Numbered from the stretch's first letter, positions 1 through 41,483 are shown. The stretch: 64,000 bases of DNA from Candidatus Curtissbacteria bacterium (GCA_016183325.1 JACPEV010000003.1:82000-145999); one strand, 5' to 3'. Made by a program: numbers and translations. The notes: generated by a model from the letters alone, not told the origin.

Positions 1-279
1 AATCTATTACTTTTATATGTTTTCCAATTGGCTATTTCCCCAGCACCATTCGGTGCGGGGCTGGCGTCGGATGGATATGGGAGCGGTAATGTTACAGGTT
101 CTTTTACCTTTCTGATTAAAAAGCTGTTGAAAAGTAAAGTTGCTGCAACGACAAGACAAATAATCGTAAGGCCGATTAGAACAGGTGGGGTTAGATAGCC
201 CCTACTCGCCGTGAAGCGGCGAAGCGGGCCGGTTTTAGTATTCGGGGGAATCTGATAAGAAAACCAGGCGCGCCGCATA
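1..279 (-). CDS. 5' part of a membrane-anchored hypothetical protein (paralog 1 of the MRRxxYLTPPVLIGL family); the gene runs off the window start
   Basis: Positions 181-290 are essentially identical to 1455-1565, so the N-terminus MRRAWFSYQIPPNTKTGPLRRFTASRGYLTPPVLIGLAIICLVVAG with its signal anchor is recreated; sequence below ~170 diverges. Confidence 0.45.
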
Positions 280-408
280 GTTTTATCATCTCACTTTTTG
301 CTTTTTAAAACAAACGGTTATCGTATTAAAAGACTGCATACCAAAATCACGCAATTGCGCGAAATTGGTATGCAGAGGAAGTTTAGGGAATGTATACAAA
401 TATCTGAC

Positions 409-476
409 GATCGTCAAGAAATTGTATAGATTGAATTTATGAAAGAAAAAGTTTTTATTGCGTGTGTTTTTTGATC
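409..476. repeat. 68-bp repeat unit (copy 1 of 3) carrying a fossil of the doc 3' end (…atcaaaaaacacacgcaataa = IKKHTQ*)
   Basis: Identical to 1681-1748 and 1749-1816. Confidence 0.8.
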
Positions 477-639
477 AGTTCTTCCCACGTCTTTGAGTAT
501 TTTTTGATAAGTTTTTTAGTTAACTTAGCAATTTTAGGATCAATTGTATTTGGACGTTTTGGTGCTTCTTGATCTACAGAATTTTTCCTCATTAATGATT
601 TGTGCATATGTTTCTTTTCTACTTACTTTGCGCTGACTT

Positions 640-765
640 GTCAACACACATCCTGTTGTCATTGCGAGGAGGTCTGCAGAATGCAGACCGACGAAGCAAT
701 CTATTTTAAGTGAGATTGCTTCGCTTCGTCGAGCCAGACTCGACTTCGCTCGCAATGACAAAGTA
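640..765. repeat. GC-rich structured palindromic element: outer inverted repeat GTCATTGCGAG…CTCGCAATGAC enclosing three internal hairpins
   Basis: Internal hairpins gtctgcaGAAtgcagac, gaagcaatc…gattgcttc and gtcgag-ccaga-ctcgac; shares the CGACTTCGCTC word with the wider repeat family. Confidence 0.6.
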
Positions 766-805
766 GTTATCTACTCTATAAATTTGAAAGGTGGAGAGGA
801 TTTGG

Positions 806-1552
806 TCAGTTTTGAAACTTGATTGTGTTGACCATTTGCATAAAGATTTGATCCCATTTCTCTTGTTCTTCTTTTGAACCTCCTCGGGACACAAATCCCA
901 AAATTTTACCATTAAAGGTTACATCGACCTTGTGATAATAAAAAATATCATGACCCCCTTCGGGATCTGTACCATCAACCACATATTCGATGGCAGGATT
1001 GCCATCTATCGTTAGATTTCTGATTTTGTAAAGAGGCGCTTTTGCAGCATGAAATTCCTCAATTTTTTCTCCTGGCTCTAAATTTAGTATTTTATAATAT
1101 TCATCGTAATTTTCTGTTACGCTAAAGCCGATTACTCCCCCAACCTTAGAATTATCGTTGGGCATAAATTGTAAAAACGCACCGCCGGTAGTTAAGGACT
1201 GTGGATGTTTAAAGCAGAATTTATCTTGAGAGTCTTTATAAGTAATCCAGTTTGCTGTGCCAGGAGTATTCCTTGGCTCGCATTCAAAATCTTCAATTTT
1301 ACTTTGGTGGTCTGTTTTGTCGGTTTGACGACTTGACGTTGGCTGTACAGAAGGTGATGGGTCAATAGTTTCATCTCTTGCGTTTCTAATGAGGAAGCTG
1401 TTGAAGAAGAGAGTGCCGGCGACAACAAGACAAATTATTGCAAGGCCGATTAGAACAGGTGGGGTTAGATAGCCCCTACTCGCCGTGAAGCGGCGAAGCG
1501 GGCCGGTTTTAGTATTCGGGGGAATCTGATAAGAAAACCAGGCGCGCCGCAT
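806..1552 (-). CDS. membrane-anchored/secreted hypothetical protein, paralog 2 of the MRRxxYLTPPVLIGL family
   Basis: ORF track frame; the likely start is the internal Met (MRRAWF…) because the 5' region including the N-terminus is duplicated at 1-290; single N-terminal TM helix. Confidence 0.5.
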   Translation of the reverse strand: MRRAWFSYQIPPNTKTGPLRRFTASRGYLTPPVLIGLAIICLVVAGTLFFNSFLIRNARDETIDPSPSVQPTSSRQTDKTDHQSKIEDFECEPRNTPGTANWITYKDSQDKFCFKHPQSLTTGGAFLQFMPNDNSKVGGVIGFSVTENYDEYYKILNLEPGEKIEEFHAAKAPLYKIRNLTIDGNPAIEYVVDGTDPEGGHDIFYYHKVDVTFNGKILGFVSRGGSKEEQEKWDQIFMQMVNTIKFQN

Positions 1553-1680
1553 AGTTTTATCATTCCACTTTTTGCTTTTTAAAACAAACTCTCGGTGGGT
1601 AATGGGTGGCATACCAAAATCACGCAATTGCGCGAAATTGGTATGCAGAGGAAGTTTAGGGAATGTATACAAATATCTGA

Positions 1681-1816
1681 CGATCGTCAAGAAATTGTAT
1701 AGATTGAATTTATGAAAGAAAAAGTTTTTATTGCGTGTGTTTTTTGATCGATCGTCAAGAAATTGTATAGATTGAATTTATGAAAGAAAAAGTTTTTATT
1801 GCGTGTGTTTTTTGAT
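1681..1816. repeat. tandem duplication (2 x 68 bp) of the unit at 409-476; the distal copy overlaps the doc stop codon
   Basis: Direct reading: cgatcgtcaagaaattgtatagattgaatttatgaaagaaaaagtttttattgcgtgtgttttttgat appears twice. Confidence 0.85.
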
Positions 1817-2176
1817 CCAATCGGCGATTTGGTCTAGCGACGGCTTTTCGTTTTCTGCCCATAAGGCAAAATCCACTTTTTCTCTTTGTGTTGCCACAAG
1901 TTCGTAGCCATTTAAATACAAAAAATATTCTAAAGTTCCCAGTGCGGTTCTTTTGTTTCCATCGATAAATGGATGATTTGATGAAAGTGATTGAATAAGG
2001 GCTGCAGCTTTTAGAAAAATGTCGGGATAGAGATCTTCTCCACCAAAAGTAGCTTGAGGCCGACCTAGCGCTGACGATAAGAGATCCCAATCTCGAACAC
2101 CTTGAGAACCACCAGTTTTTTCTGTAACACGAAGATGGATGGCGACGACTTCGTCTAGGGTGGGATATTTGATCAC
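1796..2176 (-). CDS. doc: Doc (death-on-curing) toxin, Fic/Doc family
   Basis: Fic/Doc motif HPFIDGNKRTA; 126 aa; overlaps the upstream antitoxin by 4 bp. Confidence 0.85.
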   Translation of the reverse strand: MIKYPTLDEVVAIHLRVTEKTGGSQGVRDWDLLSSALGRPQATFGGEDLYPDIFLKAAALIQSLSSNHPFIDGNKRTALGTLEYFLYLNGYELVATQREKVDFALWAENEKPSLDQIADWIKKHTQ

Positions 2177-2397
2177 TTATTGGCCAGCTCTTCTAAAGCT
2201 GGGCGATTTTTCTCGATGTACTTATCGACCCATTCTAAAAAAGCAGGAGTCAAAGTGGTTTTTCGAGCTTTTTTGACAGGCTGAATATCAACTTCAGCAG
2301 ATTGACCAACCTTCAGATTCTTTTCTTGAAGAACCTTTTTGGGAATAATGACGGCTACAGAATTACCGACACGAATTATCTTTTGAATCACGTTCAC
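2173..2397 (-). CDS. phd: AbrB/MazE-fold antitoxin partner of Doc (Phd-like)
   Basis: N-terminus IIRVGNSVAVIIPKKV is a typical SpoVT/AbrB swapped-hairpin; position and 4-bp overlap with doc. Confidence 0.7.
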   Translation of the reverse strand: MNVIQKIIRVGNSVAVIIPKKVLQEKNLKVGQSAEVDIQPVKKARKTTLTPAFLEWVDKYIEKNRPALEELANK

Positions 2398-2449
2398 CCT
2401 GAGTTTGTCGAAGGGTTAGTACAATGTTATAACAAAATTTGGGGTTTTG

Positions 2450-2812
2450 TCAATCACTTGATGATTTGGTTGTTTCTAAACATTTTGTGAGCTCTTCCGT
2501 TGGTGTCCAGCCGCACTTACCATCGGGCTGTAGTTCGCATCTGGCATTTTTATAACAAGCAAATTCTGCTCGCCACTCGCAAGTAGTGATTACATCTTGA
2601 TCGGAGCAAACTTGGCTGCTACAACCGGTTATTTTGCAACCATCGGTTGACGTGGCTTTAGATTTCGGACTTGATTGAGCAAAAGGTGTTGGGATTGGTT
2701 GGGTTTTGACATTTTTGACGAGGAGGCTGTGGAGAAAAAAAGTTCCTGCGACGAAAAAGCAAACGAGCGCAAGGCCGATTAGGACAGGAGGGGTGAGATA
2801 ACCGCGGCGCAT
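2450..2812 (-). CDS. membrane-anchored Cys-rich hypothetical protein, paralog 3 of the MRRxxYLTPPVLIGL family
   Basis: N-terminus MRRGYLTPPVLIGLALVCFFVAGTFF matches paralogs 1 and 2; the upstream catagtttaatcat is also conserved; C-terminus has 8 Cys. Confidence 0.55.
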   Translation of the reverse strand: MRRGYLTPPVLIGLALVCFFVAGTFFLHSLLVKNVKTQPIPTPFAQSSPKSKATSTDGCKITGCSSQVCSDQDVITTCEWRAEFACYKNARCELQPDGKCGWTPTEELTKCLETTKSSSD

Positions 2813-2851
2813 AGTTTAATCATGGCAGATTTTGGAAAATTGGACAAACTA

Positions 2852-3331
2852 TTAGGTCTGTAGTGTTTGAAGGATTTGAGAAATTTTTCCGTAGGCTTCG
2901 TCTGAATTTTTGTAGCTACCTTCTTGGTCCCTAGCCTCAACTATTCCATCTCTGAAATCAATAGTATTGTTTGTGGGATCTTTTATATATCCTGTGCGTA
3001 AATGAAGCCATCCAACTTCCTTATCGTCTGAATCTTTTTTCAGAATATATAAATCTGAACTAATTACATTACCACCAGGATCACTGGCTTGTGCTTCATA
3101 GCGAATTGTATATTTCAAACGACCCCTTTGAAATATAATATCTGGCCTTTTCCCTCCGTAGGTTGATATCTCAAAAAAGGCTGCGCCCGCAGCCGAGTTA
3201 TATTCCTGAGTCCCAAATAATGTTGCAGTGATAGTCGAGAGGGTTTCATAGTTTCGCCTACTGATTCCAATATCACCTTCTCCTGTTTCCGGTCCCTTGA
3301 TAGGTTCTTCTTTTCTTATATCTGTTGTCAT
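2852..3331 (-). CDS. hypothetical protein
   Basis: ORF only; immediately upstream of and co-directional with paralog 3. Confidence 0.45.
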   Translation of the reverse strand: MTTDIRKEEPIKGPETGEGDIGISRRNYETLSTITATLFGTQEYNSAAGAAFFEISTYGGKRPDIIFQRGRLKYTIRYEAQASDPGGNVISSDLYILKKDSDDKEVGWLHLRTGYIKDPTNNTIDFRDGIVEARDQEGSYKNSDEAYGKISQILQTLQT

Positions 3332-3441
3332 GTTTAGGGAATTATAACATCTATTCGCTCGAAAAGACTTATCTAGGTCCTTTCGTGGTCGTTGCCACTC
3401 CAGGATGACGAAAGAAAGAAATAGAATATATAATTGTTAAC

Positions 3442-4884
3442 ATGAAACGAATTTACATAACCACTGCTATCCCTTACGTTAATGCGGCGCCGCATATTGG
3501 TTTTGCCCTTGAGGCAGTGCAGGCGGATTGCCTGGCGAGATTTTATAGACTTTTGGGATATGACGTCTATTTTGCTTCGGGGACGGATGAAAATTCCCTG
3601 AAAAATGTGCAGGCGGCGGAGGCTGAAGGTTTGCCGACACAAGAATTGGTGGACAAATACGCCAAGCAATTTGAAAACTTAAAAGACGCGCTTAATTTAA
3701 CGTGGAATACTTTCAATAGGACCAGTGCCAAACACCATTTTGATGGCGCACAAAAATTGTGGAATCTTTGTAATAAAGAAGATATCTATAAAAAAAATTA
3801 TCGGGGACTTTATTGTGTTGGGTGTGAAGTCTTTTATGCCCAAGATGAAATTTCTGACGGAAAATGTCCAGACGGGCATACAAACATCGATGAGGTTGAG
3901 GAGGAAAATTACTTTTTTGCTCTCTCCAAATATCAAAGATACTTGGAGACGCTGATTAACACGGATCCTTCGACTTCACTCAGGACAGGTAAATTGCGGA
4001 TTGTACCGAATACGAAAAAAAATGAAGTTTTATCTTTTATTAAACAAGGACTTGAGGATTTTAGTATTTCGAGATCCCGAGAGAGAGCTCGGGGTTGGGG
4101 CGTGCCGGTGCCCGGCGACGAATCTCAGGTAATGTATGTATGGTTCGATGCTCTGACAACTTACTTGACGGCTTTGGGATTTTCGTCAAACGATGAACTT
4201 TATAAACAATATTGGACTAACAATTCCAATCGACTGCATGTTATTGGTAAGGGGATTATCAGGTTTCATGCAGTTTACTGGCCGGCGATGCTGGCATCGG
4301 CAGGGCTTCCCCTTCCCGCGATCGAATTTGTACATGGATATGTGACAGTTGATGGTCAAAAGATTTCTAAATCGCTTGGGAATGTGATCAACCCGTTTGA
4401 TTTAGTTTCTAAATTCGGCGTCGATCCGGTTCGATATTATTTACTTCGGGAAATTCCGGCGTATGGGGACGGGGATTTTTCGATTGCAAGATTTAAGGAT
4501 TTATACAATGGGGAGTTGGCAAATGGGCTTGGGAACTTGGTGGCGCGGGTGGCGCGACTGGCTTCTGATACAAGTCTGAGTTTGCCTGAAAAAAAGAATT
4601 TTAAGTTTAAAAAAACAGTTTCTGATAATTTGAGGATATTTAAATTTGATCAAGCTTTGCTTTCGATATGGGATGATATTTCGCGACTTGATAAAAAGAT
4701 CAATGAGGAAAAACCTTGGGAGCTCGCGGGTAAAAACCTTAAGAAATCGATAACTCCAATTGCCCAAGAGATTCGCGAAATTGCTTTTAACCTTGCGCCG
4801 TTTTTACCGGACACATCGAGGAAAATTCTTGATCAGTTTACGGGGAAAGTTTCGTCCGAAAAGCCTTTATTCCCCCGCATATGA
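3442..4884 (+). CDS. metG: methionyl-tRNA synthetase
   Basis: Class I aaRS motifs PHIGF (HIGH) and KISKS (KMSKS); the N-terminus aligns with MetRS. Confidence 0.9.
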   Translation: MKRIYITTAIPYVNAAPHIGFALEAVQADCLARFYRLLGYDVYFASGTDENSLKNVQAAEAEGLPTQELVDKYAKQFENLKDALNLTWNTFNRTSAKHHFDGAQKLWNLCNKEDIYKKNYRGLYCVGCEVFYAQDEISDGKCPDGHTNIDEVEEENYFFALSKYQRYLETLINTDPSTSLRTGKLRIVPNTKKNEVLSFIKQGLEDFSISRSRERARGWGVPVPGDESQVMYVWFDALTTYLTALGFSSNDELYKQYWTNNSNRLHVIGKGIIRFHAVYWPAMLASAGLPLPAIEFVHGYVTVDGQKISKSLGNVINPFDLVSKFGVDPVRYYLLREIPAYGDGDFSIARFKDLYNGELANGLGNLVARVARLASDTSLSLPEKKNFKFKKTVSDNLRIFKFDQALLSIWDDISRLDKKINEEKPWELAGKNLKKSITPIAQEIREIAFNLAPFLPDTSRKILDQFTGKVSSEKPLFPRI

Positions 4885-5549
4885 AAAAGCAATTTAAGGT
4901 TTTTGCTTGGGATTTCCACGGAACCTTGGAACAAGGGGTTGAAGTAGGATTTTGGCATATTTTGAAGGCTATAGCGAAAAAGCGCGGAATAGCCGAGAAT
5001 TTTAAGTTGTCTGAAGTTAGAAAGCTCTATGGAGTCACGGTTGCCAATTATCTACGGCATTTTTTCCCAGAAAGCAACGAGGCAGAGATTCGTGAAGTGA
5101 TGAAAGACGTGGCAACTATTCAAAATCAATCACATTTAAAAAAATATGTTCGTGCGGCACCTGGAGCAATCGAAGTTTTGGGCAGGATTCGCGCGGCAGG
5201 CCACAAGAATATTGTTCTTTCTAATTCACATCCAGATCACATTAAGCCGCTTATTAAAATTGTTGGCATGGCCGAGTTAATCGATGAGGTTTATGCCATT
5301 GACAGGCACTACACGCACAAGAAATTCGATCCTGTTGTTGAAAAGACAAAAGTTTTAAAGCGAATTAAAAAACAAGACCAGCTCGGTCGCAGTCAGTTAA
5401 TTGCCATCGGTGATCGTGCCAGCGACATAAATGCAGGGATAGCGGCAGGAACGGTGACTTATCAGTTCCTTCGGCGTGGTTTTCCGATTGACGAGACAGA
5501 TGCCGACTATAAAATATATCATTTGAGTGAGATTTTGAGAGAAATTTAA
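4881..5549 (+). CDS. HAD-superfamily hydrolase-like protein
   Basis: AWDFHGTL (degenerate motif I) and IAIGDRASDINAG (motif IV); 4-bp overlap with metG. Confidence 0.55.
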   Translation: MKKQFKVFAWDFHGTLEQGVEVGFWHILKAIAKKRGIAENFKLSEVRKLYGVTVANYLRHFFPESNEAEIREVMKDVATIQNQSHLKKYVRAAPGAIEVLGRIRAAGHKNIVLSNSHPDHIKPLIKIVGMAELIDEVYAIDRHYTHKKFDPVVEKTKVLKRIKKQDQLGRSQLIAIGDRASDINAGIAAGTVTYQFLRRGFPIDETDADYKIYHLSEILREI

Positions 5550-6571
5550 TGTTTGTCGATACCCATGCGCATTTGGATTTCTGTGATGACATTGATGATT
5601 GGATTGAAAGAGCAAAAGAGGCGGGGGTTAGGAAGATTATTAATGTTGGGACTTCTATTGAGGCAAGCAAGAAAAGTGTTGAGATTGCAGAGAAGTATTC
5701 TGAAAATGGATCCCGAATCAAGTTCGGAATGACAAAAGAGGATGACTTTCAGATCTTCGCCTCAGTCGGAATTCATCCTCAAGACGGAAAAGGTGATGTT
5801 AAAAAGTTTGGCTCTTTGCTGCACTGTTTCGAAACGCTGAAGCAAATTGCAGAGTCGTCTAAGAAAGTGGTGGCGGTTGGAGAGACCGGACTCGACTATT
5901 ACTTAAAAACAACTGATCCTTCGACCCATTCGATGAACTCAGGGCAAGCAAACTCAGGACAAACAGCAAGGCAACTGACAACTGACAAGGAAAGGGAATT
6001 TCAAAGAAAACTTTTTACTGAACAAATAAAATTAGCGCGGGAACTAAACTTGCCGATTCTCGTCCACTGCCGTAATGCTTGGGATGAGATTTTCGAGATA
6101 ATTTCAAACGAGCATGATAGTCATCCTGAATTTATTTCAGGAACTAAAAAAAAGATTCCGAAACAAAACCAGATCCCGAAACCCATTCGGGTCGATAAAA
6201 TCAGACAAGTTCGGGATGACATGGTTCGGAATGACAGAGGTGGAGTTCGAGGTTTGTTCCATTCATGGACCGGGGATTGGGAAGCGGCGAAAAAGGCTTT
6301 GGATCTGGGATTTTATATTTCCTTTTCCGGAATTGTGACGTTTAAAAATGCGCCAAAGGTCGCAGAAGTGGCGAAAAAAGTGCCGCTTGATAGAATGTTA
6401 GTTGAGACGGACTCCCCTTTTCTTTCACCGGAACCTTATCGCGGAATGGAAAATGAGCCTAAAAATGTTATAATAACGGCTCAGTTTTTGGCCAAGCTTC
6501 GAGACATTCCCCTTGATACAATAGAGGATGCGACATCGCGGAATACACAAAGGTTGTTTAACATACAATAA
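5549..6571 (+). CDS. tatD: TatD-family metal-dependent DNase/hydrolase with an in-frame low-complexity insertion
   Basis: MFVDTHAHLDF start, HCRNAW, ETDSPFLSPEPYRG; the insertion around 5918-5960 carries the GC-rich repeat words. Confidence 0.8.
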   Translation: MFVDTHAHLDFCDDIDDWIERAKEAGVRKIINVGTSIEASKKSVEIAEKYSENGSRIKFGMTKEDDFQIFASVGIHPQDGKGDVKKFGSLLHCFETLKQIAESSKKVVAVGETGLDYYLKTTDPSTHSMNSGQANSGQTARQLTTDKEREFQRKLFTEQIKLARELNLPILVHCRNAWDEIFEIISNEHDSHPEFISGTKKKIPKQNQIPKPIRVDKIRQVRDDMVRNDRGGVRGLFHSWTGDWEAAKKALDLGFYISFSGIVTFKNAPKVAEVAKKVPLDRMLVETDSPFLSPEPYRGMENEPKNVIITAQFLAKLRDIPLDTIEDATSRNTQRLFNIQ

Positions 6572-6834
6572 ATCCGAAATACGCAGCACGAAATTAGTGC
6601 ATAAAGAAATTAGTTACTGGAAATTAGAAAATTGTAATGGAAAGTAGAAAATAGAAAATGGAGAATAAATTATAACTATTTTCCAATCTCAATTTTCCAT
6701 TTCCAATTTTGCGAAGCAAAACTTCGCTTTCCAGTTTCTAGAAACTATTTTCTAGAATACAGAATTGTTTCGTATTTCGGCCGGGGACTTTTTCCTGGAG
6801 TTTAATACTTTTTCCCGTCTGGGGATCGTTTTGG

Positions 6835-8211
6835 GTGCCACATTATGTTGCTTATTACATTATTCTTTTTGATATTTTGTGGTTTTATAAATCCGGATCT
6901 TTGGCGCTAACTTCCGTGATTTCTCATCTAAAGATGAACGCGGCAAAAAATTATGACTGGCTTGCGGATGCAAAACGCTTGCCAAACTTTAAAAAAATTC
7001 ACCACTTGATTGTGATTCCAACTTTTAAAGAACCTCTGCACACACTCGAGCGAGGTTTGGATTCTTGCGCAAGTCAGGATTTTCCCAAGAAACAGATTTC
7101 GGTTTGTTTGGCTTTTGAAGAACGGGAGGGAAATGATGCACATGAGAAGGCCAGAAAGCTTGCGGCTAAATACAAAAATAAATTCGCCAATCTCATTACT
7201 ACTTTTCATCCGGAGATCCCAAGTGAGGTTAAAGGTAAATCTTCGAATGAAGCATGGGCCGGGAAATATACCAAGAAGATTTTGGTTGATGTGCAAAAGA
7301 GAGATATAAATTACATCACGGTCACGTCAAAAGACGCGGATGGAGTTTTATCCGAGAAATTTCTTTCGGCTTTAACTTATCAATTTTTAACTTCCGAAAA
7401 TCGTCATTTACTTTTTTGGCAACCGGTTGTTCTTTATTACACGAATATTTGGAAGGTACCGGCGCCAATTAGGGTGATGAGCACTCTTGGCTCTGTTTGG
7501 CAAACTGCAATGAACACCAGGACAGACAAGCTGGTTAACTTTTCGATTTATTCAACATCCTTGAAACTTTTGGACGATGTTGGTTATTGGGATGTTGATG
7601 TGATTCCTGAGGATTTTAGAATTTTTTTCAAAAGCTATTTTGCAAAAAACGGGAAAGTGGAAGTCGATCCGATATTTTTGCCGGTTTATGCAGATGCGGC
7701 AGAATCGACAAGCTACATGAAATCGCTTGTTAATTTTTACGAACAGGAAAAAAGGTGGGCTTGGGGAGTTTCCGATGACGCTTATTTTCTTAAGAAGTGG
7801 ATAACTCATACTCATATTCCGTTTTGGCATAGAACTATTCGAGTTTTTAGAGTAATTGCGGACCATTTTTTGTGGCCGGTTAATTGGTTTGCGATAACAG
7901 TTGGTGCCAATATTCCGGTACTTTTAAATCCGCTTTTTGCACAAACTGTAATGGGGCAAAATCTGCCGAGAGTTTCGTTTGGAATTTTGACAATTTGCTG
8001 GCTATTTTTGGCGGTGATTCTGATTGTTGACATGAGACAGAGACCAAAACGCACTGAGAAGGTTTCAATTTTCCGTAAAATTTTAGCACCGGTGGAGTTT
8101 GTGCTTTTGCCAATTGTGACTTTAATTTTTTCGGCGCTACCGGGCATTGATGCCCACACCAGACTGATGCTGGGGAAGTACTTGGAGTATAGAGTAACAG
8201 AGAAAGTCTAG
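6835..8211 (+). CDS. GT2-like membrane glycosyltransferase (N-terminal GT-A domain plus C-terminal TM region)
   Basis: VIPTFKEP…, KDADGV (DxD-like), multiple C-terminal TM helices; the start may be the internal Met at ~6934. Confidence 0.5.
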   Translation: MPHYVAYYIILFDILWFYKSGSLALTSVISHLKMNAAKNYDWLADAKRLPNFKKIHHLIVIPTFKEPLHTLERGLDSCASQDFPKKQISVCLAFEEREGNDAHEKARKLAAKYKNKFANLITTFHPEIPSEVKGKSSNEAWAGKYTKKILVDVQKRDINYITVTSKDADGVLSEKFLSALTYQFLTSENRHLLFWQPVVLYYTNIWKVPAPIRVMSTLGSVWQTAMNTRTDKLVNFSIYSTSLKLLDDVGYWDVDVIPEDFRIFFKSYFAKNGKVEVDPIFLPVYADAAESTSYMKSLVNFYEQEKRWAWGVSDDAYFLKKWITHTHIPFWHRTIRVFRVIADHFLWPVNWFAITVGANIPVLLNPLFAQTVMGQNLPRVSFGILTICWLFLAVILIVDMRQRPKRTEKVSIFRKILAPVEFVLLPIVTLIFSALPGIDAHTRLMLGKYLEYRVTEKV

Positions 8212-39695: not shown

Positions 39696-41483
39696 TTATT
39701 TTATATCTTCTTTCAAAATAATATATCTCTCCAGCGCCAAAATATCCAGTCCGCTCTTACTAAAAGTGTTAAAAGCATCTTCTGGCGAATTAACAATCGG
39801 CTCTCCTTTCAAGTTAAAAGAAGTATTTAAAAGAACATAAACTCCCGTTTTATCTCCAAATTTCTTCACCAGATTGTAATATCGGGCATTCTGTGTCTCA
39901 GCTATTATCTGCAGTCTCCCCGACCCATCCACGTGAGTCACCGCCGGAATCACTTTGCGCATCCCGCGTCTAACTGGAAAAACTCCCAACATAAAATTAG
40001 TCAGATACTGGTGATCAAGCTCATCAAGCTCAAAGTAATCTTTGGCTCTTTGGGCCAAAACCACCGGAGCAAAAGGTCGATAAGGCTCTCTGAATTTAAT
40101 CTTCGTATTGACCACCTCTTTCATCTCTTCCCGGCGCGGATCAGCAAGTATCGACCTTGCTCCAAGTGCCCTCGGGCCCCACTCTGCCCGCGAGTGGAAA
40201 AAACCAATAACTTTTCCATCAGCTATCTCACCAGACAAATAATCGACCAACTTCCCTTCAGATACTATTTTTTGATATTTAATCTTTTTACTCTTTAAGA
40301 ATTTCTCGATCTCGTGCTCACTAAATTCCGCGCCAAAATAACAATTATCCTGAACAAATTGTCTTTTCTTTCTAAGAACCGCATGATAGACGTAAAGAGC
40401 TGCTCCCATCGCCCCGCCATCATCTCCTGCTGCTGGCTGTACAAAAATTCTCTTGAACGGTCCTTTTTGCGCCAATAGTCCATTCGCTACACTGTTTAAA
40501 CCGACTCCACCGGCAATACATAAATTTTCTTCGCCTGTTTTTAGGTGGGCATAGTTTGCCAAATCCAAAATAACCTCCTCGGTAAGTTTCTGGATTGAAG
40601 CGGCAATATCTGCATATTTTTGATTAAGAGCGCACAGATCTTCGTAATTCTTTGGCTTTTCCCCAAAATAAGACGGATATCCTGAAGATCTTGTAAAAAA
40701 ATGCAGATCTCGCGGTCTTGGCTCTCCAAAAAGTTCCACAAATTTCGAACCAAATGCCCTGTCCGACGACTTGTGATATGTAAAATATTCCATCCTCAGC
40801 GCATAAGAACCGTCACCATATCTCTTAACCAGCTTTCTTGCACGATCCAAGTATTTCGGAAGTCCATAGGGAGCCATACCCATCACTTTATATTCACCAT
40901 CATTGACTTCAAAACCTAAAAAGGCCGTAAACACTGAATACAAAAGCCCCAAGCTATGTGGAAACTTAATCTCCGATAATATTTCCAAATCTAAACCCTT
41001 GCCCAACCCAATTGTCGTTGTCGTCCACTCTCCCACACCGTCAAATGTCAAAACGCAAGCACTACCAAAACCGGATGCATAAAAAGCTGATGCTGCGTGC
41101 GAAACATGATGGGCAGCAAAGAGGATTTTGTCACGTTCGACGGCAAGTTTATCGGAAATTATAGAACGGACCCAGAGTTTGTCGGAAAGCCAAGTAACCA
41201 TTGATTTTGCAAAAAACCGATGTGCTTGCGGCCAACTTGCTAAAGAAGATATTAAAATTCTGGTAAATTTCCAAAAAGGTTTCTCATAAAAAACTACAAA
41301 ATCAAGATCAGTTGCAGTTATTCCTGCCCGAAGAAGACAAAAGTCAATCGCCATTTTGGGGAATTCGCTGTCATGTTTTTTGCGACTAAATCTTTCCTCG
41401 GCCGACGCCGCCACCACCCTGCCATCTTTTATTAAACATGCCGCCGATTCGTGGTAGAAACAAGAGATACCTAGAATATACAT
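39696..41483 (-). CDS. NodU/CmcH-family carbamoyltransferase
   Basis: MYILGIS…HESAA start, C-terminal LLNTSFNLKGEPIV. Confidence 0.85.
   Translation of the reverse strand: MYILGISCFYHESAACLIKDGRVVAASAEERFSRKKHDSEFPKMAIDFCLLRAGITATDLDFVVFYEKPFWKFTRILISSLASWPQAHRFFAKSMVTWLSDKLWVRSIISDKLAVERDKILFAAHHVSHAASAFYASGFGSACVLTFDGVGEWTTTTIGLGKGLDLEILSEIKFPHSLGLLYSVFTAFLGFEVNDGEYKVMGMAPYGLPKYLDRARKLVKRYGDGSYALRMEYFTYHKSSDRAFGSKFVELFGEPRPRDLHFFTRSSGYPSYFGEKPKNYEDLCALNQKYADIAASIQKLTEEVILDLANYAHLKTGEENLCIAGGVGLNSVANGLLAQKGPFKRIFVQPAAGDDGGAMGAALYVYHAVLRKKRQFVQDNCYFGAEFSEHEIEKFLKSKKIKYQKIVSEGKLVDYLSGEIADGKVIGFFHSRAEWGPRALGARSILADPRREEMKEVVNTKIKFREPYRPFAPVVLAQRAKDYFELDELDHQYLTNFMLGVFPVRRGMRKVIPAVTHVDGSGRLQIIAETQNARYYNLVKKFGDKTGVYVLLNTSFNLKGEPIVNSPEDAFNTFSKSGLDILALERYIILKEDIK

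Follow-up and report, generated by a model that had tools for sequence, protein, structure and literature searches.

The locus

The subject of this analysis is a group of three genes for membrane-anchored proteins, arranged around a doc toxin gene and its antitoxin gene, at the left end of a 64,000-nucleotide (nt) stretch of a Candidatus Curtissbacteria metagenome-assembled genome (GCA_016183325.1, JACPEV010000003.1:82000-145999), referred to below as the window. Genes 1 and 2 of this group share a long and in part exactly repeated 5' region that terminates, upstream, in a fragment of doc. The locus genes are all on the minus strand, and metG is encoded on the plus strand from 3442. The product of gene 2 is 100% identical to HYU92_01045 at NCBI, while gene 1, cut by the window edge, is HYU92_01035, with a full-length product (P0002) of 233 amino acids. 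The features on which the argument relies are as follows (ORF, open reading frame).

1-278, minus strand: gene 1, 5' part only, encoding MRR, a 23-codon insert, the GYLTPPVLIGL anchor, a Pro/Ser linker and a PsbP-like body, and continuing beyond the window edge
100-167, with its counterpart at 1374-1441, minus strand: older gene 1/gene 2 homology (codons 38-60, transmembrane segment)
168-476, minus strand: copy A of the putative recent copy or conversion tract, spanning gene 1 codons 1-37, the promoter-like motif, a 20-nt patch, the hairpin, the palindrome and the doc tail
1442-1749, minus strand: copy B of the same tract, in its donor context, running on into the genuine doc end
201-269 (gene 1) and 1475-1543 (gene 2), minus strand: in-frame 69-nt segment AWFSYQIPPNTKTGPLRRFTASR, 56% GC, immediately 3' of the MRR codons
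276-313, 1550-1587 and 2810-2847, minus strand: proximal promoter-like composite TTGTTT-N17(TG)-GATGAT-N6-ATG, ahead of genes 1, 2 and 3
316-335 (20 nt) and 1590-1608 (19 nt), minus strand: variable patch between the hairpin and the -35-like TTG
334-375 and 1609-1646, minus strand: stable hairpin of 17-19 bp
389-432 and 1662-1705, strandless: imperfect 20-4-20 palindrome centered on CGATCG
409-476, minus strand: dispersed copy of a 68-bp unit, whose distal 22 nt are the last six doc codons and stop (IKKHTQ*)
455-607, minus strand: small ORF of 50 amino acids, ending in the doc tail
806-1552, minus strand: gene 2 (HYU92_01045), 248 amino acids from the MRR start, with a gene 1-type anchor and a predicted PsbP/Mog1 fold
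1681-1748 and 1749-1816, minus strand: two tandem copies of the 68-bp unit, the second of which holds the genuine doc 3' end
1796-2176, minus strand: doc toxin gene, 126 amino acids, Fic/Doc family
2173-2397, minus strand: AbrB/MazE-type Doc-partner antitoxin, 74 amino acids, overlapping doc by 4 nt
2450-2812, minus strand: gene 3, 120 amino acids, with the short anchor MRRGYLTPPVLIGLA followed by an eight-Cys ectodomain

A repeated 5' region carrying the end of doc

The direct repeat of 100-476 and 1374-1749, which brackets the gene 2 body, is real and far above the chance level, and the duplicated 5' region described in the earlier note, with its fossil doc tail, thus stands. The recent part of the repeat is composed of two identical blocks, one in which 168-315 equals 1442-1589 base by base, save for positions 290-291, and one in which 336-476 equals 1609-1749 exactly, across 141 nt. 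These blocks are split by the patches at 316-335 and 1590-1608, which are wholly unrelated to one another and have no further occurrence in the window. Leftwards from 167 the two genes show many differences, with 9 of the 19 transmembrane-coding codons 38-56 differing (6 of the 9 synonymously), and with mostly non-synonymous changes from codon 57. The edge of the older homology at 100-167 is the sharp downstream limit of the recent tract. The absence of any divergence outside the patch and positions 290-291, followed by mostly synonymous differences from 167, suggests a recent tract laid over older paralogs. Self-BLAST of the 64 kb detected no additional copy of any of the blocks, and the N-terminal motif is likewise absent from the other 61 kb.

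The 68-bp unit is present in three copies, two in tandem at 1681-1816 (2.0 copies by Tandem Repeats Finder) and one dispersed at 409-476, and not in the tandem triplication proposed previously for 1681-1816. The tandem units are flush with GATC at both ends, their junction reading GATCGATC, and one edge of the unit falls in the center (CGATCG) of the palindrome. A distal promoter-like site of the minus strand, TTGACG-17-TACATT, overlaps the palindrome at 389-432. The sequence GATCAAA is found at the doc start as well (GTGATCAAAT). GATC is not avoided in the window (observed/expected 0.83), in contrast to what an active GATC restriction system would produce.

Membrane-anchored proteins with divergent ectodomains

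All three genes start with MRR...GYLTPPVLIGLA, as described earlier, and the limits of genes 2 and 3 remain those given before, while the start of gene 1 is at 278 and not at 279. The C-terminal domains had been considered unrelated. In the case of genes 1 and 2 they are not: with the N-termini removed, the bodies align end to end at 25% identity (E 8e-4), share a signature, ANW(K/I)TY..F.FK(Y/H)P, at the domain start, and retain traces of the family C-terminal tail FDQILSTFKF (ILSTFQF and, in diverged form, MVNTIKF in genes 1 and 2, respectively). While neither gene 1 nor gene 2 has a Pfam match at E<=1, 7 of the 13 aligned family members match PsbP_2 (PF18933), with a best E of 5e-8. An AlphaFold2 model of gene 2 residues 90-248 has a mean predicted local distance difference test score of 84 and a predicted template modeling (TM) score of 0.79, and the top 17 Foldseek matches of this model in the PDB are all chains of PsbP or PsbP-like proteins (the 13th being an NDH-PSI subunit), with E values of 4e-6 to 2e-4 and TM scores of about 0.55-0.6; more distant matches are to LpqN, Apa, DcrB, Mog1 and Tsi3/EagT6. 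The bodies of genes 1 and 2 are thus predicted, from alignment and model, to be divergent homologous domains of the PsbP/Mog1 fold, and an extracytoplasmic role in binding or adhesion may be proposed for them. The literature search on PsbP-like families in bacteria of the candidate phyla radiation (CPR) returned nothing relevant.

Gene 3 has a different ectodomain, in which the eight Cys noted earlier are indeed counted, within residues 58-111. It scores 28.4 bits with TIGR04289 (cut-off 50; E 1.9e-6) and has a weak precomputed match to Heavy_Cys_CGP. A single-sequence model of this protein is confident for the transmembrane helix at residues 8-35 only, with low confidence for the Cys domain. 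The class III signal peptide of type IV pilin-like proteins has the motif G|(F/M)xxxE after a short basic leader. In the N-termini described here, RRG-YLTPPVLIGL, there is no Glu at +5, and positions +3/+4 are occupied by Pro-Pro.

A promiscuous AbrB-Doc cassette

The doc product is recognized by PF02661 (66.8 bits, cut-off 24) and TIGR01550 (65.5 bits, cut-off 38.65), and its translation contains NHPFIDGNKRTA, with the motif HPFIDGNKR. The Doc-type variant of the Fic motif is HxFx(D)GNKR. The IKKHTQ* tail is native to doc: all 20 of the sampled Doc homologs from other genomes end in WI(K/R)(K/D)H.., 11 of them in WIKKHT(K/N/P), and TGGAT(C/T)AAAAA(G/A)CA is conserved at the DNA level in every doc locus fetched. 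The copy of the tail at 455-476 is therefore derived. Since only the last 22 nt of doc are repeated, the notion that the array was amplified together with an addiction module is not supported. Nor is the antitoxin of the Phd type, as had been assumed: it matches the MazE/AbrB-type family PF04014 (E 4e-4) and the doc_partner model TIGR02609 (E 9e-10, under the cut-off), and has no match to the Phd/YefM profiles.

Homologs of Doc number more than 2,000, and many of them, from several CPR lineages, are 80-90% identical. These close toxins (homologs P0006-P0124), from WWE3, Curtissbacteria, a Saccharimonad and a Daviesbacteria-like lineage, always have an AbrB-type partner of 72-74 amino acids, in neighborhoods that are unrelated. 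The antitoxin-doc pair is also found in the six other distinct contexts inspected, examples being positions between glycosyltransferase genes, beside ychF/rpsF and beside a GDSL lipase gene, and beyond the two coding sequences (2394..1795) it shows no homology to the window. From these comparisons, AbrB-Doc is a promiscuous two-gene cassette with no specific partnership to the anchored-protein family. It appears to be highly mobile, and its flanks do not reveal the mechanism of insertion. A conserved, attC-like end of the toxin-antitoxin (TA) cassette was considered for the 46 nt that follow doc and rejected, as homology stops at the doc stop codon in 6 of the 6 other contexts.

A variable island next to metG

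Relatives of the locus were collected by pattern scans of 185,579 species-representative genomes and of Joint Genome Institute metagenomes. In these scans, only a narrow group of Curtissbacteria has the MRRGYLTPPV N-terminus, which has no further occurrence in the window, and the respective genes sit between metG and the PBP1A gene wherever the flanks are visible. The content of this island is variable, with zero to four genes for anchored proteins, interleaved with differing TA cassettes:

L001, L007, L008 and L010 (one organism, four independent assemblies): paralog, Phd/PIN, paralog, AbrB/PIN, paralog
L009: paralog, reversed RHH/PIN pair, another anchored protein, Phd/RelE, 40-amino acid anchor-only ORF
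L002: AbrB/PIN, PsbP_2 paralog, AbrB/Doc, then PBP1A
L011 and L012: only a 34-amino acid anchor remnant, between metG and PBP1A
ENA contig of P0003/P0004: four genes, zero TA cassettes

In a second Curtissbacteria lineage (L003-L006), the genes adjoin priA, in the order PIN TA, paralog, other anchored protein, paralog, AbrB/Doc.

The earlier description of the locus as polymorphic is thus borne out, as gene number, protein bodies and TA content all differ between relatives. Near-identical N-termini on bodies that are 12-25% identical are found in four lineages, the pairs being genes 1 and 2 of the window, the first and third paralogs of L001 (m1 and m3), P0126/P0127 and P0003/P0004. In L001, the first and third paralogs have in common a 5' segment of 246 nt, at 96% identity. 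In P0126/P0127, 69 of the first 75 alignment columns match, and the first 50 are identical. No pair of bodies looks orthologous, within or between genomes, while the methionyl-tRNA synthetase (MetRS) encoded next to the island is approximately 75% identical between genomes. Both the variability of the island and the recurrent homogenization of 5' regions are properties of the relatives as well. At the PBP1A end of the island, anchor-only ORFs are present at L009 8675-8797 (40 amino acids), L011 1604-1708 and L012 2-106 (34 amino acids each), the one in L009 carrying a full promoter-like motif. Such ORFs could have been left by deletions between 5' modules, or they could encode real small membrane proteins.

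The 23-codon segment that follows MRR in genes 1 and 2 (69 nt, 56% GC) is absent from gene 3 and from all of the homologs, P0003, P0004 and the L001 paralogs among them, save for a shorter, 8-codon version at the same site in L009 (24 nt, in frame, 5980-6003). In L011 a GC-rich insert of 75 nt is found directly ahead of the start (approximately 1517-1591). The first codons and the immediate upstream region of the array genes are, in the window, L009 and L011, a recurrent site of short GC-rich insertions. A separate observation concerns L001, where five tandem 8-nt units, CTTTCTGA, are located at 7510-7549, between a PIN toxin stop codon and the promoter-like motif of the next paralog.

The relatives also bear on the reliability of the assembly. 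One alternative to be considered is that the exact repeats of 141 and 147 nt and/or the tandem duplication of the 68-bp unit were made or misplaced in the assembly of a strain mixture, and that the real genome possesses a single doc-tail/hairpin block. Consistent with this, the sequence stems from a metagenome-assembled genome, the repeats have 100% identity at about read length, two Logan assemblies that are 100% identical to 1931-5681 both end short of the repeats, and exact-protein look-ups with the products of genes 1 and 2 and of the small ORF returned no other assembly on record. However, the differences in codons 38-56 and in the bodies beyond them show that two real paralogs exist, the comparable sharing of 5' sequence in L001 belongs to an organism assembled independently four times, and the small ORF and the doc tail, being in frame, form a coherent ORF. 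We consider such an artefact improbable.

The small ORF and its probably overwritten end

The doc tail at 455-476 is in frame with the 50-amino acid ORF upstream of gene 1. A search of 1.8 billion representative proteins identified a homolog of this ORF, P0135, of 47 amino acids (59% identity, E 4e-7), which ends ...YDKAWRELAKL*. As the homolog terminates in WRELAKL*, the IKKHTQ* end of the small ORF is secondary, and the small ORF itself, judging by this comparison, is a genuine conserved gene whose last few codons appear to have been overwritten by the doc tail. It has no match in Pfam or NCBIfam.

A different origin may be envisioned, in which gene 1 once had an antitoxin-doc pair of its own ahead of it. 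The small ORF would then be a shrunken antitoxin, the GATCAAA repeats at the two ends of the second doc (GTGATCAAAT at the start, TGGATCAAAAA at the end) would have delimited a deletion that left only IKKHTQ*, and the identity with copy B would result from a conversion begun inside doc. The small ORF family does align with the last 30 residues of the Doc-partner antitoxins, with the C-termini in register (hhalign P 0.0011, 33% identity, probability 21%), the junction CTGATCAAAAAACAC fits the doc start and the doc end alike, and the alternation of TA cassettes and paralogs is usual in the relatives. In shuffle tests of the small ORF versus the antitoxin, p values ranged from 0.02 to 0.34, so that the small ORF may be said to resemble, weakly, the C-terminal half of the antitoxins. 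At this hhalign probability, and with no profile match, the similarity is weak; P0135, moreover, is a complete small protein with its own stop codon, meaning that the ORF need not be a remnant, and two events would be required where one suffices. A decayed second Doc module is thus a doubtful explanation compared to the overwriting of a resident gene.

Expression signals and the hairpin

The only upstream sequence common to the three genes of the window is TGnNATGATnAAAnTATG, with 3 matches in 64 kb versus 0.01 expected. In its extended form, TTG-N17-TGnNATGAT-N6-ATG, the same three sites are the only ones in the 64 kb (0.00 expected), and in L001 and L009 no array gene lacks this composite at its start, the anchor-only ORF included. 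Its layout is that of a -35 element separated by a 17-nt spacer from an extended -10, and the ATG comes 7 nt after the hexamer. Since the composite ends 6 nt before each ATG, it has the geometry of a leaderless mRNA, and the array genes would be transcribed leaderless from this proximal motif. Such expression would not be exceptional in the window: none of the 42 ORFs of at least 150 amino acids has a Shine-Dalgarno-like motif at -18 to -3, while 13 of the 42 have a TAnnnT hexamer 5-8 nt before the ATG, one of them being metG (TATAAT-7 nt-ATG). The organism thus appears to lack Shine-Dalgarno sites and to possess many leaderless-looking genes. The literature search on leaderless or Shine-Dalgarno-less Patescibacteria returned nothing relevant.

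These considerations alter the view of the hairpin, which had been described as a conserved element of the leader. The hairpin is real and very stable (-28 kcal/mol, z = -10), while its position in a leader is unsupported, as the promoter-like motif is downstream of it; if the mRNA is leaderless, then the hairpin is located approximately 20 nt upstream of the -35 element, outside the mRNA. It is probably a terminator, or an insulator, of the upstream gene (doc or the small ORF), and not a 5'-untranslated element. A U-rich run follows it in copy A only, where it is supplied by the variable patch. No hairpin of this kind was found in 13 related loci, and both the hairpin and the palindrome are also absent at gene 3. 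An Rfam scan of 1-3500 at permissive E-values returned two chance-level matches, neither on the hairpin.

The same signals speak to the suggestion of the earlier note that the locus is a cassette-switching one, in which a recombinase or a slipped-strand mechanism would exchange C-terminal cassettes behind a fixed expression site, or toggle promoters. Divergent bodies behind a conserved 5' module, as seen repeatedly in several lineages, are what such programmed phase variation could produce, as are the palindrome centered on CGATCG at the edge of the 68-bp unit, the same GATC at three repeat boundaries and the anchor-only ORFs at the array ends. However, all of the copies have a complete promoter-like motif, start and anchor (3 of 3 genes in the window), so that there is neither a single expression site nor a set of silent 5'-truncated cassettes of the pilE/pilS or vlsE kind. 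The long repeats are all direct, inverted repeats being present only as local hairpins and palindromes and none of them flanking a segment in the manner of an invertible promoter or a shufflon. No recombinase-like ORF is encoded in 1-6600 or in the syntenic loci inspected, homopolymer or short-unit tracts are absent from the promoter spacer and the coding sequence, and the hairpin and palindrome are missing at gene 3 and at all of the related loci. Programmed switching is thus very improbable and largely refuted, and an ordinary evolutionary mechanism suffices.

Other elements of the window

Two more features are located within or next to the array.

656-762, strandless: GC-rich three-hairpin palindromic element, between gene 2 and the small ORF
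2852-3331, minus strand: 159-amino acid ORF (HYU92_01065), between metG and gene 3, with neither an anchor nor a match to any family

The first of these, of approximately 107 nt, has terminal inverted repeats (TTGTCATTGCGAG/CTCGCAATGACAA) and a folding energy, as DNA, of -38 kcal/mol (z = -9). It is present in a single copy in the window, and in appearance it resembles the small palindromic insertion elements that are common in genomes of this type. As to the 159-amino acid ORF, its assignment to the anchored-protein family by hhalign, at a probability of 98.8%, was rejected as circular, the ORF having been part of the profile. Against an independent profile, only its last 10 residues (KISQILQTLQ) align, at E 0.13, echoing the FDQILSTFKF tail, and it may be a decayed family member.

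Short tandem repeats are also found elsewhere in the window, just upstream of the minus-strand starts at 41483, 27836 and 15766, with units of ATTTTCA, CCTGAATACCTGATAA and TTAGAAA-like sequence, respectively. When metG (3442-4884) and the tatD-like gene (5549-6571) are compared with their counterparts in L001 (4225-5718 and 2622-3527), they possess differing in-frame low-complexity inserts: the L001 MetRS carries SPRSTPGVSLVTSRHTPGVNKDRVTR, where the MetRS of the window has no insert, and the inserts of the two TatD-like proteins are mutually unrelated.

Origin of the array

Overall, the locus is best explained, with a probability of about 0.7, as a tandem array of paralogs that undergo gene conversion at their 5' ends and that has been invaded by mobile TA cassettes. 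Each paralog would consist of a conserved 5' module (the promoter-like composite, the MRR(+/-23 aa)GYLTPPVLIGLA signal-anchor and the Pro/Ser linker) joined to a hyper-divergent ectodomain, and the modules would be repeatedly homogenized by non-reciprocal recombination (gene conversion, or copying facilitated by homology) for which the conserved anchor-coding sequence provides the anchor point. In one such recent event, the gene 1 side would have received a copy of approximately 310 bp of the gene 2 side, the tract extending upstream through the promoter, the hairpin and the whole intergenic region, to include the last 22 nt of doc; it carries the last six codons and the stop of doc because the upstream region of gene 2 abuts this gene. 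The copied tract would have replaced the region ahead of gene 1 and overwritten the last codons of the resident small ORF. The third copy of the tail would stem from a separate tandem duplication of 68 bp at the doc end, and the AbrB-Doc cassette, as a mobile unit, would have settled between genes 3 and 2. Both the mechanism and the direction of the recombination are, we infer, those that best fit the repeat anatomy.

Some of the evidence weighs against this explanation. One and the same GATC|AAAAAA is found where copy A ends upstream, at the tandem junction and at the end of doc, which simple conversion does not predict. The unlike patch of 20 or 19 nt inside otherwise identical sequence calls for a patchy tract or for a second event. 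The exact repeats (141 nt and approximately 147 nt) belong to a metagenome-assembled genome for which independent assemblies span 1931-5681 only. Gene 2 on its own has no Pfam match.

As a consequence, genes 1 and 2 now possess the same expression signals and the same membrane anchor, and the array, with its direct repeats, is liable to be deleted or duplicated in part. The repeats of L001 enclose both TA modules, so that loss of the enclosed segment would trigger post-segregational killing, and the cassettes may, in analogy to integron arrays, stabilize the island against deletion.

A further-reaching version of this scenario can also be sketched, as speculation that is rather unlikely to be correct: the metG-PBP1A island of Curtissbacteria would be a site at which recombination diversifies the surface-exposed PsbP-fold proteins of presumably episymbiotic cells, and in which the promoter-anchor-linker module and the FDQILSTFKF(LD) 3' end serve as homology arms and the bodies are replaced by intragenomic conversion or by DNA taken up, leaving anchor-only remnants, with TA cassettes acting as anti-deletion locks. 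A specific break site might then be what the repeated GATC-flush junctions indicate.

The findings have a bearing on the biology of CPR bacteria, which rely on cell-cell contact and whose surface proteins are almost all uncharacterized. What emerges is a lineage-specific family of membrane-anchored proteins of the predicted PsbP fold, whose bodies (12-25% identity) turn over far faster than MetRS (~75%), while a portable module of promoter and anchor would be kept uniform via recombination. The window offers what looks like a clean, datable conversion tract that has carried a toxin-gene fragment along, and the relatives show that type II TA cassettes settle repeatedly in the metG island. A word of caution also follows, that a “fossil gene tail” can arise as a by-product of conversion.

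Comparison with known systems

One obvious comparison is with the vsp, vlp and vsa systems of Mycoplasma, which are multigene families of variable surface (lipo)proteins with a common 5' region and signal sequence. The likeness is in the clustering of paralogs, in the near-identical upstream regions and anchors followed by divergent mature parts, and in the strain-variable content. Unlike these systems, the array described here has no lipobox, in-gene tandem repeats, invertible promoter or recombinase, each copy has its own promoter, and the variable part is a folded, PsbP-like domain.

Another comparison is with concerted evolution by gene conversion, with which the locus shares a sharp transition, at one boundary, from 0% to mostly synonymous divergence, a non-reciprocal character and an identifiable donor side (the doc tail). 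What sets the tract apart from the usual conversion is that it passes out of the coding region and across the promoter to reach the 3' end of an unrelated gene, that no prior homology is evident at its distal end, and that it contains the internal 20-nt patch.

A third example is presented by the TA cassettes of chromosomal integron arrays (PMC13108822). The similarity is in different type II TA pairs (Doc, PIN, RelE) placed among variable accessory genes that are flanked by direct repeats, a setting in which they could penalize large deletions, while the differences are that no integrase is seen near the locus, that attC sites and promoterless cassettes are lacking, and that the homology of the TA pairs is restricted to their coding sequences. 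Repeat searches of the window likewise detected no attC-like repeat family after genes.

As to the proteins themselves, gene 2, by its predicted fold, and the relatives, by their matches to PF18933, resemble the PsbP/Mog1/DUF1795-like superfamily, which has LpqN, Apa and DcrB among its members in the bacterial envelope, in being extracytoplasmic and membrane-tethered. They differ from its members in that genes 1 and 2 are under Pfam detection, in that they have a signal anchor and not a lipoprotein signal, and in that the organism is non-photosynthetic. The TA module, in turn, is like P1 Phd-Doc in possessing a bona fide Doc toxin (Fic fold, HxFxDGNKR) and an overlapping upstream antitoxin gene, and unlike it in the AbrB/MazE-type doc_partner antitoxin, which replaces Phd/YefM, and in its chromosomal position, where the module is unduplicated.

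In conclusion, the components of the locus are of known kinds, a paralog array with gene conversion and TA cassettes in a variable island, and no new mechanism is needed to account for them. The value of the comparison lies in annotation and in the evolution of accessory islands in CPR bacteria, for which it adds a description at the level of a protein family.

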